Both the position numbers and the translations under genes were made by a program. Under the pieces are notes generated by a model. It saw only the letters and a program-made list of their open reading frames with translations, did no database searches and was not told the origin of the DNA. Below, one piece after another: positions 29,124-45,934 of a DNA stretch of 64,000 bases. Every line of letters starts with the position of its first letter. The first letter of the stretch is position 1. The stretch comes from an uncultured Chloroflexia bacterium (GTDB lineage: Bacteria; Chloroflexota; Anaerolineae; Anaerolineales; UBA4823), in the NCBI GenBank assembly GCA_963698765.1, contig CAVOSB010000037.1, forward strand, positions 90,993 to 154,992. Direction: 5' to 3'.

Positions 29124-29158
29124 CAAAAAAAGCCAGGATCAGAAAGTGTAGCCTGGCT
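29124..29158 (-). terminator. putative rho-independent terminator of the hydrolase gene
   Basis: On the minus strand AGCCAGG (29152-29158) pairs with CCTGGCT (29131-29137), followed by a T7 run (29124-29130). The stop codon (29139-29141) lies in the loop. Confidence 0.6.
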
Positions 29159-30009
29159 CATTGGAGGGGGGGTTGATGGTTCTCTTATTCAACCATTCAA
29201 GTAGATAGTTAATAACCATCTCCTTGCCAATTTCATTGTGTATCTCGTGATACATCTCTTCCCAAATCTTGAGCGTGCAAGTCTTCTCTGCAAGTCGAGC
29301 GAATTCGATCGAAGAATTCGGGAATGCTACCCGGTCTTTCTCACCATGGATCATTAAAAGCGGAGCTGGAAATTTGTTTGCATTTTCCCAGATCGAGGCT
29401 ATCTCATTTATCATTTCAAGGGCAAAACCTAATGATGCGTGATCATGAACTAATGGATCATTGATATAGCTGTTGACAATTTCAGGATCTCGCGAAAAGG
29501 GCATTAGGGTCGAGACCTGAAGGTATGGATAATCGTGGGATTACTCGACCCAGGATTTTAACCAGGGAAAGCTTGATTCTTTGGGTTTCCAAAGCGTTGT
29601 GCAGAGCCACTCCGGTGCAAATCACGCCGTTAAGCGGCGGATTTCGGCTCAATACATAAGAGATTGCAAGAATTGCTCCCAGGCTGTGACCATACAAGAA
29701 ATGCGGTTTGCTGAGCAAGTCAGGGATTGACAATAAAAATCCATCAATGTCCTTTAAGTATGTTTCATATGAGGGCGTATCACCGCGCTGGCCTTCTGAT
29801 TTTCCATGGCCGCGCAGATCAAAGGATTTTAAGGAGAATCCATTTTCAATGAGAAACTTGCCAAGATGAGCATACCGGCTGCTGTGTTCACCGAGGCCAT
29901 GCAGCAGGATAACCATACCCCTTTCCTGGGTGTCAGGTATCCAGCTTTGACAGAACAAACTCAAACCATCATGGGTGAGAATATGTTTTTCTAAATAATT
30001 TCGTTCCAT
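29139..30009 (-). pseudogene. alpha/beta hydrolase (lysophospholipase/monoglyceride lipase-like), frame break near 29495
   Basis: ORF 29482-30009 has HGLGEHSSRY and the nucleophile elbow GHSLGA. ORF 29139-29504 continues with RDPEIVNSYINDPLVH...MIHGEKD...YHEIHNE, which supplies the catalytic Asp and His. Confidence 0.75.
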
Positions 30010-32980: not shown

Positions 32981-34217
32981 TCAACTTTGACCAATGTCCG
33001 ATTTTTGAAGCAGCGGCAGGTAGATTTGAAAAGTGGTTCCGAGACCTAAATGTGACTGGGCATCGATTTCACCATCGTGAGCTTGAATAATCTTCCTCGT
33101 GATATAAAGACCTAATCCTGACCCGCGCACACTGGTGCTGGATTGCTGGACTCGATAAAAACGCTGAAAAATCCGATCAAGGTGTTCGGAAGCTATCCCG
33201 GGACCATAATCCTGCACCGAGATGCGTGCTTGGAGGTTCTTTTTATCCAATATTAATTTAATGGGTGAGCCAGGTGCATATTTAGTCGCATTGCTTACGA
33301 TATTGTCAAAAACCTGGGTTAACCGTGTCGGATCAGCAGATACCTGTAATCCAGGGGTCCTTAACTCAAGATCAACGCGCAGGTCTTCATGCATTGACCG
33401 GACACGAAGTGAAAGCTCTTTCAAGAATGTGTCCAACCTGACGGTCTGGAACGCCATCTGCAGAGTTCCCGCTTGCAGTCGGGAAAAGTCGAGCAAATTG
33501 TCGATCAGGTTTCTTTAACCTGTCAGATTCCTCGTCTATGATCGAAAGAAATTCCCGGCGAGTAGACTCATCCCAGGAAGTATCCTCCCTCAGAAGCGTG
33601 GTCGCATAACCTTTGATGAAACCGAGTGGAGTTAAAAGCTCGTGTGAAATCATGGCAATAAAATCATCCTGCAGGCTGTCCAACCGCCGTTTGGCTTCCA
33701 GATTGGCAATTTGATTTACCAGCTGTTTGCGCTCGAGTATTTGAGCAACATGCAGCGCGATAAATTCTGCCAGGTTGATTTGATCGGGAGTAAAGACCGG
33801 ACCGCCGAACCGAATAAAAACCAGGACGCCTTTGGATTGCCCGGCAAGCCTGAGGGGTAAACCCAAGAAGTGCCTGATATCTGTTCGATCTGTTGATCCG
33901 CCGTCCAGTTGTTCGAATCGGGTCGTCGTCCTGCCGTTCTGGAAAGCTTCGTGCGCCACCACTTCTCCCCATGCCAGGTCCGCTTCCCTGAACCGGCCTC
34001 GTCCTATCGCCCTGGCGTATGTAGGGTCGAGTCCATTCTCCGGCAGTTTTTCATACATTACAATATTGTCAAAGATAAAGATGGGACGGGCGATTTTAAC
34101 GATTGTATCCAGGGCAGCTTCAGTGCTGATTGCTGAAGCAACAGCCTGGCTGAGCGTGTAAACTGCATCAAGCTCTTGCGGTTGTAATTGAACAGCGCCG
34201 TTATTCTGATCAGCCAT
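32981..34217 (-). pseudogene. GAF-domain sensor histidine kinase, frame break at 33508-33509
   Basis: ORF 33387-34217 holds the GAF region and the H-box (MISHELLTPLGFIKG). ORF 32981-33496 holds the HATPase (NIVSNATKYA, DYGPGI, GSGLGLYI). Removing one C restores DRLKKLIDNLLDFSRLQAG. Confidence 0.8.
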
Positions 34218-35179: not shown

Positions 35180-36707
35180 CTACTGCTCAAAAGAACTATT
35201 GGTGTTTTTGTCCAGAATTTGAGCTTCTTTCATGCAGAGGCGTGCAAATTCGAGGGCTTGTGCCCGTGATTGGATTTCACCGCTGGCCTGTGCTTCCCTG
35301 GCGAGACTTAATATTTGCCCAATCAACGGCCCGGGTTTTATCTTGAATTCCTCAAGTAAATCAGAGCCAGTTATTAAACTGGGGGAGATACCAGTTCATC
35401 AGCCAGCTCCCACCAACTTTCGAGTAAAGTGCGAATCACATCGACCAGGAATATCCATTTCGCCTGAGGTAACTCCGTCCCATAAGTTGCGAGGGTATCA
35501 GCCAGCGAGAGCAGGCAGATATCCACTCCAGTTTCTCCTGTTGCTTGAAAAAACCTGTAAACGCTGCGCCGAGCTGGCAGTTCACCTGCCTGAGCTAATA
35601 AAATGGGACGCATGTGGTTTTTTATTATTCTGGAAATACGATCGCATTCCAAACGGCTCAATCTGAGTATCCGGGCGCGAAGGGAAGCACATTGAGCTCC
35701 GATGAGTTCGTGTTTGTAAAAATGTACATCACCAGTCCCATCCACCGTACGGGTCGTAGGTTTCCCGACATCATGATACAACGCAGATAGCAATAGCAAT
35801 CCGGTGAGAGACCTGCCGGGAACCAATGAAGTTTTCAGATGTTCATCCAAATGCCTGCGAAATCTCCCAAGCTTCGCTGATATCAATCCCGTAATCCAAT
35901 TAGGATTTGATTTAGTATCATAATGTATGGAGAGAATTTCTAAAACCTGGTGTAATTTTTGAACGGTGTCCAGCGAGTGAGAAAACGCGTCTGAGATGTG
36001 CGGAGGCGCGGCAGCCACTGCCTTGAGCACCTCCATTTCTGGGAGCATGAACTTCAGCGCACCGACAACATCCAATCCTCGCAAGACGGAAGCAGGACGG
36101 GCTCCTCCAAAAATGCGGAATAGCTCATCCCGCAATCGGTCTTGAGAAATGCTTTCCATGTACGGGATTGCCGGATACATCCCCGCCTTCGTTCCGGATG
36201 AAAAAGTGAGATTAAAATCGGAAGCCTGGCGGAATGCACGCGGGATGCGAATAGGATCATCTACAAAAGAATGGTTGGAGCATACGTGCAGGGACTTGTT
36301 CCGAAGATCTTTAGCTCCACCCAGCGGATCGATAAGTGTGTCCAGATCGCGCAAGGATACAGCCATAGCATTAACGGTAAAATCCCGATTGCGGAGATCA
36401 GTCTCGAGATCCTGACCCTGAAATGCTGCAAAGTCAAGAGTCCATCGTTTGCTATCCCATTCGTCTACTATCACTCGCCCGATATCTCGACTGATGTCAA
36501 GTGGGTAAAATGCTGCTCGAAGATGATTTGCCACCCGGCGTGCGGTATCGATGGCATGATTGGGGAGGGTAAAATCCAAATCGGTGATCGGTCTGGCCAG
36601 CAAGGAGTCGCGAAATCGCCCCTCCGACCAGGTACACTTCACTGTCAATCGGAATGGCGGGTTGAATTTTTGTTTAAAATTTCTACCGGTAGACTGAAGG
36701 CAGACAA
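35180..36707 (-). pseudogene. cca: CCA-adding enzyme / poly(A) polymerase family with HD domain, at least 3 frame breaks (~35375, ~36615, ~36650)
   Basis: Hand tracing gives (TTG 36707) SAFSLPVEIL..., then EVYLVGGA, then RDSLLARPITDLDF... and the HD region (ALYHDVGKP) in ORF 35374-36846. After its stop the sequence continues LITGSDLLEEFKIKPGPLIGQILSLAREAQASGEIQSRAQALEFARL, ending at the stop at 35180-35182. Confidence 0.7.
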
Positions 36708-36709
36708 AA

Positions 36710-37264
36710 TTACTCTTCTGGGCGGTAGCGGTTAAGGTCAACGGTTGCAATGAAGGGTAGATTGCGATAATACTCATCCATATCGAGCCCGTAACCAAAA
36801 ACGAATTCATTTGGGATGACGAATCCACAATAATGAATCGGTACATCTACCTCACGCCGGTCAGGTTTATCCAGCAGCGTACAGACCCGCAAGCTGTTTG
36901 GGTGTCGAGTGTTTAATAATTCAATGACCGAGGAGATTGTGTTTCCGCTGTCGACGATATCTTCAACAAGCAAGACATTCCTGCCGTAAATATCTGATTT
37001 CAAATCTAAAGAGATGCGAATTTGCCCGGTCGTGTGCCGCTCGGTCCCGTAAGATGAAATTGCCATAAAGTCGATGGTATGAGGCACCTGAATATGGCGC
37101 ATTAAATCTCCAAGGAAGAGCACCCCTCCGCGCAGAATGCAGATGAGATGTAGGTCCTGATGTGAATAATCGCGGCTGATTTCCTCTCCCAGCTCAATAA
37201 TCCGGTTTTGTAACGCTTCTTCGTTGACCAAGATTTTATCGAGGAAGTCTTTGTAATTCTGCAT
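36710..37264 (-). CDS. hpt: hypoxanthine phosphoribosyltransferase
   Basis: The PRPP-binding motif is VLLVEDIVDSGNT, with the typical flanks (ICILRGG, FVIPNEFVFGYGLD). The start at MQNYKD (37264) lies 2 nt after the tdk stop. Confidence 0.85.
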   Translation of the reverse strand: MQNYKDFLDKILVNEEALQNRIIELGEEISRDYSHQDLHLICILRGGVLFLGDLMRHIQVPHTIDFMAISSYGTERHTTGQIRISLDLKSDIYGRNVLLVEDIVDSGNTISSVIELLNTRHPNSLRVCTLLDKPDRREVDVPIHYCGFVIPNEFVFGYGLDMDEYYRNLPFIATVDLNRYRPEE

Positions 37265-37266
37265 GC

Positions 37267-37839
37267 TCAATCCTTTGGTACCTGATGATGAGCCCGGCAC
37301 CGGGCCTCATAAAGTTCGGCTGCTCCGACGATAACCACCGGGTCGTTGTAATGAGCAGGCTTATCGTTGACAAGACGCTGAGTACGGCTTGCCGGTTCTC
37401 CACAAATCATGCAAATCGCATGCAGCTTATCGACATCTTCAGCTTTTGCCATAATGATTGGCATGGGGCCAAAAGGTTCACCACGAAAGTCGGTATCCAG
37501 CCCGGCAACAATAACTCGAATACCTCTCTCTGCCAGCTGTTGAACTACCTGTATGATCTCGTTTTCAAAAAATTGGGCTTCATCTACGGCGACCACTGTG
37601 GTATCGCTGTCGGTTTTCTCAAGGATTTCCCGGGCAAAATTGATGGGGATGGCATCAAACTCATTTCCGGCGTGAGATTTGACTTTAACTGTACTATAGC
37701 GAATATCCAATGATGGCTTGAACACCTGCACTTTTTGTCTTGCGATCGTTGCTCGCCTCAGCCGTCTGATCAGTTCATCGGTCTTCCCGCAAAACATTGA
37801 CCCCGTGATGACTTCGATTGAACCGGTGTGGTGTTTCAT
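37267..37839 (-). CDS. tdk: thymidine kinase
   Basis: P-loop [14 protein letters not shown], the motif AVDEAQFF and the C-terminal zinc motif CMICGEPA...RCRAHH. Confidence 0.9.
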
Positions 37840-37951: not shown

Positions 37952-37981
37952 GAAAAGAAAAAGCAGGTGAGAGCCACCTGC
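37952..37981 (-). terminator. rho-independent terminator of the rplU-rpmA-rpmE operon
   Basis: On the minus strand GCAGGTG (37975-37981) pairs with CACCTGC (37963-37969) across a 5-nt loop, followed by TTTTTCTTTTC. Confidence 0.65.
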
Positions 37982-38062
37982 TTAATCCTGTTATTTACTA
38001 CAAGGAAACTATCTATTTACACTAATAACCTAGCCAGACAGGCTATCTTCTAAGGGAAGGTT

Positions 38063-38536
38063 TTATACAACAATTTCCTTGGCGGCCTCAGGTAATTCAT
38101 ATCCGAAATATCGGAGGCGTTTCTTCAAATCTGCCAGGGATTTTCGACCAAATCCATCGATCGCAAGCAAGGCTGCTTCACCATCAGAAAGTCTTTCCAG
38201 TATTTGACCTACAGTTGTAATTCCCGCTTTGGTCAAGGATTCCTGAGCGCGCGTCCCCAACTCCAATTCAGCAACTGGCCTCTCGAGCGAGGTTCGGGCT
38301 GATTTACGTGCTTCCTGATCATCCAGGAACTGCTGGCGTACCTGCAGCTTCTTATAAAACCGGTCGACCTGACCCTCGCTATCGACAATGCGTTGCTCAC
38401 CTGTATAAAATGGATGGCAATTCGAGCACACATCCGTGCGGATCAATTTTTTAGTTGACCCGGTTGTCCAGGTATTTCCACAAGAACAGATGACCTGAGC
38501 ATCTGTGTAGTAAGTAGGATGAATATCTTTTCTCAT
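38063..38536 (-). CDS. rpmE: ribosomal protein L31 (type A, Zn-binding) fused to an RNA polymerase alpha-CTD-like helix-hairpin-helix domain
   Basis: Residues 1-65 are MRKDIHPTYY...CSCG...CSNCHPFYTGEQR..GQVDRF, which is L31. Residues about 85-150 are RPVAELELGTRAQESLTKAGITTVGQILERLSDGEAALLAIDGFGRKSLADLKKRL. This aligns by eye with the E. coli and B. subtilis alpha-CTD ([35 protein letters not shown]). Confidence 0.85.
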   Translation of the reverse strand: MRKDIHPTYYTDAQVICSCGNTWTTGSTKKLIRTDVCSNCHPFYTGEQRIVDSEGQVDRFYKKLQVRQQFLDDQEARKSARTSLERPVAELELGTRAQESLTKAGITTVGQILERLSDGEAALLAIDGFGRKSLADLKKRLRYFGYELPEAAKEIVV

Positions 38537-38551
38537 GACTTAGTCCTGTCT

Positions 38552-38819
38552 TTATTCTGCTTTCTCCTGAGGCATCACGCTGACACGCTTCCGATCATCT
38601 CGGATGGTTTCGTAAACCACAATCCCATCCGTGGTTGCAAAAAGCGTATCATCTTTCCCAACCCCAACGTTAATACCTGGTTTGATGCGAGTCCCCGCGT
38701 TGCCTGACCAGGATATTCCCAGAGAGGACCTGTTCCCCACTGAACACTTTCACTCCCAATCGCTGGCTCTGGCTGTCACGTCCGTTGCGGCTGGATCCGC
38801 CGCCTTTTTTATGTGCCAT
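38552..38819 (-). pseudogene. rpmA: ribosomal protein L27, frame break in G4 run (38693-38696)
   Basis: Hand translation from ATG 38817-38819 gives [42 protein letters not shown]. Then ORF 38552-38740 supplies [28 protein letters not shown]. Removing one G joins the two. Confidence 0.85.
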
Positions 38820-38896: not shown

Positions 38897-39221
38897 TTAT
38901 TTTCCATTTTCCGCTATCGCCTCAATTTGAAGGCGAGTATATTTCTGCCGGTGACCGGTCTTAACCCGTACACGTTTCTTGGGCTTATATCTAAATACAG
39001 TCAATTTCGGTCCTTTGAATTGCGAGACAACTGATGCCTTCACATTTGCTTTTTCCAAAATCGGCTTGCCCAGACTCACTTTATCGCCGTCGACTGATCA
39101 TTAAAACCCTTTGGAGATTTACTTCATCTCCAGGTTCTGATTCGAAGAAATCGACTTCGATCGTGCCTCCTTCAACGGCAGTGTACTGTTTTCCACCATC
39201 TTCAACGATTGCATATTTCAT
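38897..39221 (-). pseudogene. rplU: ribosomal protein L21, frame break near 39093
   Basis: Hand translation from ATG 39219-39221 gives [43 protein letters not shown]. After a 1-nt shift it continues [22 protein letters not shown]...[11 protein letters not shown] (ORF 38897-39079). Confidence 0.85.
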
Positions 39222-39343
39222 AGAAAGCTCCTCCAAGCTTCACTTCGCCGGACAAGCAGCGGTCAATCCGCGGCAGTTCGGGGAATTTGGGGATAAACGT
39301 AATGCTATCCCGACAAAATGCCTGCCGGGACAGAGCGGGCTGT

Positions 39344-39373
39344 ATTATAACGGGGGAAACGGCAGATTGTCAA
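39344..39373 (-). promoter_or_regulatory. sigma-70-type promoter for rplU operon (TTGACA-N18-TATAAT)
   Basis: On the minus strand TTGACA lies at 39368-39373 and TATAAT at 39344-39349. This is about 120 nt upstream of the rplU ATG. Confidence 0.55.
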
Positions 39374-44298: not shown

Positions 44299-45767
44299 CT
44301 AAACAGGTTGGATGTATTGATCGAATTTAGGAGCATCTATTGGCATCGTGCTACGTCTGGATTTCTTTTTCCTAGAACTCCTGAGACGACCGGGTAGTAT
44401 GCCTTCCAGCGATCGATATTTTGCCACCGTACGGCGTGCAACATGGTAGCCTCGGGCGCCTAATCTTATGACGATTTCTGCGTCGCTGAGCGGATGTTCT
44501 TCGCTTTTAATGATCTCTTGCATAATAGTTCGAACATTCAGGCTGCGCTCGAACATCCTTGACATAGGAATGATGCGTTGATCTGGTAATTGTACCGCTT
44601 TATTAGACACAGCCCTCGATATCGTGGATTCATGCAGTTCAAGCTCTTTTGCCAGCTGAGCTCTGGTCATAGGAATTAATTTTGCTTCGCCCTCCAAAAT
44701 AAATTGACGCTGGTAAAAGACGAGTTTTTCAACCAGACGGACAATGGTGTGATTGCGCTGTTGAAGACACTTGACCAGGAGATTCGCGCGCTCATAATCC
44801 TCCCGCCATTCATCGGTTTTTTCCTCCGGAGCTTGATGCAGAGCTTCTTTGAACAGTGGATTGACCCTCAAACAACCGCTGTATGGGGAGACTATCTCCA
44901 CCACAAGCTGAGTCTCTTGTGTGTCTTTGGATGCAGATATGATGATGTCTGCGTGCTGGTAGACTGGCGGAGTGGGGGTTTTTTGATTATTCTCACCCCA
45001 ATGGGCGCGTGCTGGAAAGGGATTGAGGTTCTGAATAATGAAGTCGGATAACTCCTGTGCTTCATCAGATGATATACCTAGAAAGCGCCCAAGTAGCTCT
45101 GGAGACTTGCGAGTGAGAATATTAAATCCTTCCTGAACAGCCTTATAACAAAGTCCTGGTACCGGACGTAATTCGGCCAGAACTTCCAATTGAACCAACA
45201 TGGCTGATTGAGGTGTCTGAGAGCCAACTCCGATCGGATCTGATCGCTGCACACTTCTCAATACCTCTTCGACGCACGAGATTGGAACATGGTGGTACAG
45301 GGCAATTTCGTGGAGAGGTACACGCAGCAGGCCATCGTCATCCAGGCTCGTCAGGATAAAAGCAGCGATAGGTCGATCACCCGGATCCAGCTCAGGTGCG
45401 ATTTGACGGAAGACATATGTTGGAAGGTTCTGGACTTCAGCGATCCATTCATCTTGTGCGTCATTTCTTTCCAAGTCATAATTTCTTGAAGAGGAAAAGT
45501 CACTTGTGGGGGAAATAAAGATGATGGGTTCTGATTGAGAATGTTTAATCGGGAAGAACATACCGGACACGCGCCGGATGCGATCTGTGGACGGTGGCAG
45601 CGCGGACAACGGCGGACATCAATAAGCTCCAATGCTGGGTTTGATGCTAAGTCTGCCTCAATCTTTTGCTTTAATTCACCACTTGTGAGCTCCAATAATG
45701 ACATTGTTTGAGCAAGATGGGCAGTCGGTTGCTGGCGAAGGAGTGGGGATTGTCTTTGTTGCAGCAT
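44299..45767 (-). pseudogene. rpoN: RNA polymerase sigma-54 factor with a CxxC..CxxC insert, frame break near 45550
   Basis: Region I is MLQQRQSPLLRQQPTAHLAQTMSLLELTSGELKQKIEADLASNPALE (ORF 45351-45854). The core-binding and C-terminal regions lie in ORF 44299-45609 (HTH: TRAQLAKELELHESTISRAV; RpoN box: ARRTVAKYR). Confidence 0.85.
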
Positions 45768-45934
45768 GGGGACACCTCTTTCTATTATAACCCGTTGCAA
45801 GAAATGTACCAAATGAAGTGCTATTACGCAACAAATGTGCCATTTGTCGATCAATATTATGACTTTTGCGATTTTCTTTCAGCGTTCCACAGTGTTAAAA
45901 TATCCAAAATCAATCCATAGTACAGAGGATCAAA

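Follow-up and report, generated by a model that had tools for sequence, protein, structure and literature searches.

Why should a ribosomal protein carry a piece of RNA polymerase (RNAP)? The question is raised by a 64,000-nucleotide (nt) stretch of DNA, referred to below as the window, from an uncultured Chloroflexia bacterium (GenBank assembly GCA_963698765.1, contig CAVOSB010000037.1, positions 90,993 to 154,992 of the forward strand), in which the rpmE gene for ribosomal protein bL31 continues in frame into a module resembling the C-terminal domain of the RNAP α subunit (αCTD). bL31 forms bridges B1b/B1c between the 50S subunit's central protuberance and the head of the 30S subunit, bridges that influence subunit association, head movement and fidelity. 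Comparative analysis establishes that the fusion is real, class-wide in Anaerolineae, under purifying selection and rpoA-derived; a large bacterial class has joined a conserved RNAP-derived domain to a bridge protein at a fixed distance.

The fusion gene is a single unbroken open reading frame (ORF) of 157 amino acids (aa) with an ATG start on the minus strand (Table 1), and its translation agrees exactly with the protein sequence reported in a model-generated first-pass annotation of the window. That annotation described the product as a canonical Zn-type L31 fused in frame to an αCTD-like helix-hairpin-helix (HhH) module, a description upheld by profile searches, by the predicted fold, by conservation in hundreds of species and by purifying selection. 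In the Pfam domain search that it had proposed, both domains score above their gathering thresholds: Ribosomal_L31 (PF01197) matches residues 1-64 with 99 bits against a gathering score of 27 (E=1.7e-28; profile positions 1-64 of 65), and RNA_pol_A_CTD (PF03118) matches residues 78-141 with 45.3 bits against 23.8 (E=7e-12; profile positions 5-65 of 67). The NCBIfam L31 equivalog model NF000612 (98.6 bits, cut-off 70) and TIGR00105 (88.5 bits, cut-off 38.35) were likewise passed, while the NCBIfam rpoA models gave partial matches through the C-terminal end of the model alone. Pfam detected neither an RNA_pol_A_bac nor an RNA_pol_L domain in the fusion, the N-terminus being bL31.

The same division was seen in a search of PDB sequences, in which residues 1-64 matched bL31 chains (E down to 9e-21) and residues 82-150 matched RNAP α subunits and isolated αCTDs (E of ~1e-5 to 1e-4). 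Matches to residues 74-151 were exclusively RNAP α chains, and no bL31 chain in this search matched the query past residue 80. The zinc ribbon is of type A (CxC...CxxC), with C17, C19, C37 and C40 invariant in 142 fusion homologs. Within the window, tblastn located neither rpoA nor a second L31.

A gene of this kind could in principle arise from an error, if a sequencing indel, or the loss of a stop codon, had joined a short rpmE to a small αCTD-like gene next to it. The first-pass annotation had dismissed such an artefact on the grounds that the ORF needs no frame correction. This argument is weak because the window contains at least five 1-nt frameshifts, including those in rplU and rpmA, the two genes immediately upstream of the fusion. 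The conclusion itself stands, on comparative data: the fusion is a real gene and not an indel artefact. A genome scan with one genome per GTDB species found a relative in at least 527 species, and among the best 80 loci from these species, to which all locus statistics refer, the ORF is unbroken through both domains in 79. The exception, in a single-contig metagenome-assembled genome (MAG), is frameshifted in its N-terminus. Over 240 protein clusters, drawn from assemblies made independently (NCBI, JGI, ENA and Logan), likewise contain the continuous ORF, which rules out an indel or fusion artefact, and the frame and the 30-residue spacer between the domains are preserved despite saturated synonymous sites. 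The probability that we still assign to a merger is negligible.

In the 120 best protein clusters the fusion is 152-159 aa long (157 or 159 aa save for one entry of 152 aa), 78-98% identical to the window protein, and carries both Pfam domains. The assembly index holds no record of the exact window protein, the closest cluster (P0001) being 98% identical. A second, more divergent clade comprises proteins of 150-200 aa, mostly 154-165 aa, with 50-64% identity to the window protein. RNA_pol_A_CTD was recognized at E<=0.01 in 113 of 121 family members, the clade-2 members lying just under the gathering score (21.5 bits). Each of the best 80 loci bears the label Anaerolineae, Anaerolineales, Anaerolineaceae, Chloroflexota or "uncultured Chloroflexia", with the exception of L016, whose label "uncultured beta proteobacterium" is probably wrong. 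The set includes the cultured Thermanaerothrix daxensis GNS-1 and T. solaris, and its MAG labels include Anaerolinea thermophila, Bellilinea, Levilinea and Brevefilum.

Ratios of nonsynonymous to synonymous differences (pN/pS) were 0.14 (L31 part), 0.37 (spacer), 0.29 (CTD) and 0.28 (C-terminal tail), with pS of ~0.75 and thus saturated; every segment is therefore under purifying selection. The tail is conserved in clade 1 (consensus ELPEAAEEIVV) and divergent in clade 2.

Candidates for split or stand-alone precursor genes (P0245, P0235 and P0256) were considered and rejected. All three seemingly stand-alone CTD genes that were inspected are in fact the fusion, called in truncated form, a further point against a merger of two genes. 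One begins at a late start codon and is annotated at NCBI as 'RNA polymerase subunit alpha C-terminal domain-containing protein', one is cut off at a contig end and annotated there as 'hypothetical protein', and another is frameshifted within its L31 domain. The underlying loci (L082 2767-3310, GCA_033577755.1, MDW8326219.1; L084 1-459, GCA_026418995.1, MCX7680809.1; and L081 2846-3370) all show the rplU-rpmA-rpmE context.

As a separate observation, in P0164 (L085 30-635, JGI 3300035127, a 1.4-kb contig), and also in P0183, an L31-type CTD seems to be joined to a GNVR (Wzz-like) N-terminal segment. This CTD includes the junction motif '..SxER.I.DLELGKR..'; the join may stem from chimeric assembly or may be a second architecture in its own right.

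From where was the extra domain recruited? The fusion CTD is 47% identical, without gaps over 68 residues, to the CTD of rpoA in Anaerolineae-labelled MAGs. Alignments to solved αCTDs from Streptomyces, Bacillus, Mycobacterium, Thermus and E. coli reached 20-29 bits, and the five best of them (Streptomyces, Bacillus, Mycobacterium) required a 3-residue gap in the loop L-x-x-G-E-x-x-L-L-A-I. The same 3-residue insertion is present in Chloroflexota rpoA. Gapless identity and shared insertion together show that the L31-borne domain was duplicated from the lineage's own rpoA CTD, and it was later remodelled. The first-pass annotation had asked whether a normal rpoA with its own CTD exists elsewhere, and at class level it does: Anaerolineae-labelled MAGs encode an rpoA of 332-336 aa with a canonical CTD.

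Outside the window, several Chloroflexota rpoA proteins were found to carry two tandem αCTDs (P0392, 410 aa; P0401, 391 aa; P0138; P0148). The first of these CTDs is canonical (...IRNFGQKS) and the second is degenerate, having lost the equivalents of K298 and N294. In P0160, P0177, P0162, P0172, P0128, P0129 and P0140, modules closest to the L31-borne CTD also occur in TPR proteins with two CTDs (~312-443 aa) and in arrays of 3-7 CTDs, among them a 1059-aa protein combining seven CTDs with sigma-70 region 4 (Sigma70_r4). No characterised function was found for the TPR and array proteins. The αCTD is a generally mobile, duplicable module.

The geometry of the fusion is marked by its spacer. The stretch between F60, in the last part of bL31, and L91, in the CTD, counts exactly 30 residues in 142 of 142 homologs, although spacer identity averages 55%, and the spacer alignment is also gapless in more distant representatives. 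By comparison, in a set of rpoA proteins from the same lineage with 72% identity among their CTDs, the flexible linker that joins N-terminal domain to CTD measures 55-60 residues. Conserved spacer residues are A76 and the basic R67, R77 and R/K81, and the spacer directly follows K62 and K63. An AlphaFold2 model computed from the 142-sequence alignment (mean predicted local distance difference test score (pLDDT) 77.5) contains the L31 beta domain (strands 10-17, 22-27 and 31-34), a region of low confidence at ~45-57, which is the part of bL31 that crosses the intersubunit gap, a single long helix (53-81), a bundle of five helices spanning 88-144 (helices 88-91, 95-103, 109-117, 121-124 and 131-144; pLDDT 81-88 over residues 81-150) and a short helix (150-153) before an extreme C-terminal end of low pLDDT. 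The model of a clade-2 protein, whose CTD is just below the Pfam threshold at 21.5 bits, has the same architecture, and Foldseek matched the fusion model to bL31 chains and to the RNAP α chains 8igr_G, 9msf_G and 9msg_G. In two independent models the fixed-length spacer comes out as a continuous helix, and we take it to be rigid. Where the first-pass annotation had placed a basic linker of roughly 20 aa, the basic residues are present, but the segment is predicted to be helical rather than loose, and it is invariant in length.

The spacer follows on the segment with which bL31 of other bacteria reaches the 30S head. In the window protein this segment, QVDRFYKKL, aligns without offset to RVDRFNKRF of E. 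coli bL31, in whose numbering we take the head-contact segment to be residues ~56-64, including R63; K63 of the window protein corresponds to E. coli R63. V57-F60 and L64 are invariant among the homologs, and Y61, K62 and K63 are 97-99% conserved. In E. coli, R63 contacts 16S h42, 30S binding requires residues 63-70, and bL31 rests on uS13/uS14/uS19 with its C-terminal portion; the role of bL31 in bridges B1b/B1c is summarised in the same work (PMC7297116).

To judge which functions of the αCTD persist in the L31-borne copy, 142 fusions were compared with 118 Chloroflexota rpoA CTDs after mapping both to E. coli numbering. The '265 determinant' for DNA binding, known from genetic and structural work on E. 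coli, consists of R265, N268, C269, N294, G296, K298 and S299. Retained in the fusion are R265 (96%), G296 (100%), K297 as Arg (97%), K298 (96%), S299 (63%) and D/E302 (96%), R96 of the window protein being equivalent to R265 and G130/R131/K132/S133 to G296/K297/K298/S299. Lost are Y267, N268, C269, K271, R272 and N294 (Gly in 97%), and R293 has become Asp or Glu; N268 and C269 are replaced by variable residues or Gly. The lost residues are 89-99% conserved in Chloroflexota rpoA, with N268, C269, R293 and N294 at ~99%. Gained in the fusion are K138 (100%), K139 (97%), R140 (85%), R142 (100%) and G119 (100%). E261 is not conserved (E 52%, G 38%) and the 287 region is variable. This comparison indicates that the HhH elements contacting the nucleic-acid backbone have been kept, and that the UP-element determinants have been lost along with conservation of the 261 and 287 surfaces for activators and sigma. 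The fusion CTD does not possess the complete DNA-binding 265 determinant.

These losses bear on a proposal of the first-pass annotation, namely that the module might tether ribosomes to UP-element DNA, activators or RNAP. In such a scheme the L31-borne CTD would bind a genuine αCTD ligand, either DNA or a transcription factor such as NusA, and so connect the translating ribosome physically with the nucleoid or the transcription complex. The proposal can draw on the descent of the domain from the rpoA CTD, with R265, G296 and K298 kept, and on the reuse of αCTD-like modules in many other proteins, one of them with sigma-70 region 4, but it sits poorly with the loss of N268, C269 and N294 and the charge reversal at R293, all ~99% conserved in the lineage's rpoA, and with the lack of conservation at E261 and the variability of the 287 region. 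One would moreover expect flexibility and a varying length of a tether, as in the α linker of 55-60 residues, whereas the spacer is a fixed stretch of 30 residues predicted to be helical and rigid. Location speaks for it, since the C-terminus of bL31 is on the 30S head, as are RNAP and NusG in the transcription-translation complex TTC-B. In the E. coli NusA-NusG-TTC-B complex both αCTDs bind NusA, while RNAP and NusG are on the 30S head (uS3, uS10), and in E. coli coupled complexes it is the NusA N-terminal domain together with AR2 that binds the two αCTDs (bioRxiv 10.1101/2020.03.01.972380). On balance we consider a coupling tether unlikely, and a link of the ribosome to the transcription machinery or DNA is speculative, as the first-pass annotation itself had stated. 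Its most specific form, in which the L31-borne CTD would be a ribosome-resident αCTD mimic that binds a component of the transcription complex, the NusA N-terminal domain being the most plausible, or alternatively binds DNA or nascent RNA at RNAP, is distinctly improbable; if true, it would amount to hard-wired ribosome-RNAP coupling in Anaerolineae, replacing or supplementing the NusG-uS10 bridge. More generally, a CTD that reaches outward could be a new physical route for transcription-translation coupling.

The reading that we favour, with a confidence somewhat short of even, is that the domain forms an appendage for nucleic-acid binding, held rigidly in place on the 30S head beside bridge B1b/B1c, a built-in ribosomal extension rather than a free tether to DNA. 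As in other bacteria, the 50S central protuberance would carry the N-terminal domain of bL31, and the VDRFYKKL segment would touch the 30S head at uS13/uS14/uS19/h42. From the head contact the helix would run on for ~18 residues, or ~27 Å, and fix the CTD in a single defined place, either on the top of the 30S head or beside it, near the central protuberance. The conserved R96 and G128-F-G130-R131-K132, together with the K138/K139/R142 stripe, would there contact the backbone of a nucleic acid, most probably of rRNA, or of tRNA or mRNA passing the 30S head. The CTD could in this way enlarge or tune bridge B1b/B1c, with effects on subunit association and head movement. If it does dock on the ribosome, it would be a bridge element absent from solved bacterial ribosomes, and a transcription domain turned into a ribosomal part.

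Several points weigh against this placement. The defined position of spacer and domain follows from the bL31 parts docking as they do in other bacteria; for the Anaerolineae ribosome, where the domain docks and what it binds (rRNA, mRNA, tRNA, DNA or protein) are inferences. The inter-domain orientation in the AlphaFold2 model is unreliable (predicted template modelling score (pTM) 0.47). In addition, the net charge of the CTD is only ~+1, and a protein partner is therefore equally plausible on electrostatic grounds.

HhH domains can indeed act as protein binders, AR1 and AR2 of NusA being examples. The L31-borne domain might accordingly be a docking platform that brings a translation-side protein to the 30S head or the central protuberance, with hibernation and dimerisation factors, ABCF proteins and chaperones as examples, or might mediate ribosome-ribosome contacts. 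Besides the near-neutral net charge, this explanation has in its favour the conserved acidic positions D/E127 and D136 beside the basic stripe, and a clade-1 tail, ELPEAAEEIVV, that resembles a short linear docking motif. The tail, however, is not conserved in clade 2, the best-conserved residues of the domain fall in the nucleic-acid-contacting elements of the HhH, and synteny offers no partner candidate, the neighbours being rplU, rpmA, tdk and hpt. We regard a docking platform as an unlikely explanation, and the nucleic-acid-binding appendage on the 30S head as the preferred one.

The genomic setting of the fusion is that of a ribosomal protein operon. The order rplU-rpmA-rpmE(fusion) was found in 80 of 80 loci; of these 80, 71 have tdk downstream and 70 have hpt. 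In the window, the rpmA stop codon (38552-38554) lies 15 nt upstream of the fusion start, so that the genes are tightly coupled in one operon. The genes 3' of the fusion on the minus strand (35377-37839) are tdk (thymidine kinase), hpt (phosphoribosyltransferase) and a gene of the CCA-adding/poly(A) polymerase family, an order also present in a 3.68-Mb Anaerolineae contig (L083). The consensus match upstream of rplU is a candidate operon promoter, and the terminator-like hairpin beyond the fusion would close the rplU-rpmA-rpmE unit.

Table 1 Features of the L31-αCTD fusion gene and its operon in the window, listed by position.
Feature	Coordinates	Strand	Basis and remarks
Intrinsic-terminator-like hairpin, 10-bp stem then TTTCTTTT (T-rich)	37961..37983	minus	Terminator scan; ~80 nt past the stop codon
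rpmE fusion gene, bL31 + αCTD-like domain	38063..38536	minus	157-aa ORF, Pfam; stop codon 38063-38065
Acidic-hydrophobic tail PEAAKEIVV, residues 149-157	38066..38092	minus	Sequences, conservation, AlphaFold2
αCTD-derived five-helix HhH domain, residues 86-148	38093..38281	minus	Pfam, PDB alignments, rpoA identity, Foldseek
Spacer, residues 65-85, within predicted helix 53-81	38282..38344	minus	AlphaFold2 models, length and conservation statistics
Zn-ribbon bL31, residues 1-64, including the C-terminal VDRFYKKL motif	38345..38536	minus	Pfam, NCBIfam, PDB matches
AGGA ribosome-binding site, 7 nt before ATG	38544..38547	minus	Read from sequence
rpmA (L27), immediately upstream of the fusion	38552..38819	minus	Frameshifted in the window
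rplU (L21), first gene of the cluster	38897..39221	minus	Frameshifted in the window
13-bp hairpin in leader, between promoter-like site and rplU	39305-39333	minus	Scan
Sigma-70-type promoter match TTGACA-18 nt-TATAAT, upstream of rplU	39344..39373	minus	Promoter scan, 12/12 matches; consensus match only

The region between the promoter-like site and rplU, with its hairpin, may serve the L21-L27-L31 operon as a so far uncharacterised leader. In an extraribosomal explanation, the extra domain would assist L31 in its free form in binding its own operon mRNA or leader, or would have some other moonlighting function away from the ribosome. E. coli bL31 does repress rpmE translation via the 5' untranslated region, but this repressor activity needs the N-terminus of bL31 and not its C-terminus (PMC7297116). 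The 13-bp hairpin would suit an autoregulatory target, while an Rfam search around the operon gave no significant match, and so no known RNA leader or regulatory RNA. The invariant spacer length, too, points to a geometric role inside a large complex. An autoregulatory role is very unlikely.

How does the fusion compare with known proteins? In its first 64 residues it is a canonical bL31 of type A (RpmE; 70 aa in E. coli, 71 aa in T. thermophilus), aligning end to end with solved chains at 51-57% identity and sharing the four Zn cysteines, the VDRF-x-K-K/R head-contact motif and a ribosomal-protein cluster adjoining tdk. The canonical protein, however, ends 6-10 residues past the head-contact motif, whereas the fusion has 93 extra residues. 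Lineage-specific lengthening of bL31 has precedents in Mycoplasma pneumoniae (97-aa chain) and in chloroplasts (130-144-aa precursors); none of the lengthened bL31 chains in the PDB matches the fusion past residue 80 by sequence search, the chains not having been scanned against Pfam. With the αCTD (PF03118), especially that of Chloroflexota rpoA, the fusion shares a predicted five-helix double HhH fold and the equivalents of R265, G296, K297/K298 and D/E302. It differs from it in that the α N-terminal domain is missing, a predicted helix of fixed length replaces the flexible linker, N268, C269, K271, R272 and N294 are lost, R293 is reversed in charge, and the K138/K139/R142 stripe has been gained. 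The TPR proteins with two CTDs, the arrays of 3-7 CTDs and the tandem-CTD rpoA proteins are the best non-L31 matches to the window CTD, and none of these has its CTDs on a ribosomal protein. We classify the fusion as a lineage-specific ribosomal-protein extension built from a recruited RNAP domain.

A full-text literature search, thin on subscription journals, found no paper describing an L31-αCTD fusion. The architecture is visible in precomputed Pfam annotations, in which the proteins are named merely "50S ribosomal protein L31". On the practical side, public annotation names the protein simply 'L31', or mistakes truncated forms of it for an 'RNAP alpha CTD domain-containing protein'.

Finally, the reading frames of the window itself deserve attention. 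Both rplU and rpmA switch from frame -3 to frame -1 in tblastn alignments, rpmA through one extra G in a G-run near 38694 and rplU through one extra C near 39093, and these single-base insertions are most likely sequencing or assembly errors. With L21 and L27 counted, at least five frameshifts occur within ~17 kb, and ORF-based readings of the window therefore need care. Three further genes, all on the minus strand, are split over overlapping ORFs (29142-30009, 32984-34217 and 44302-45854); the split genes encode an S33 hydrolase (Hydrolase_4 profile positions 2-149 and 148-237), a GAF-HisKA/HATPase_c histidine kinase and sigma-54 (AID versus CBD and DBD).

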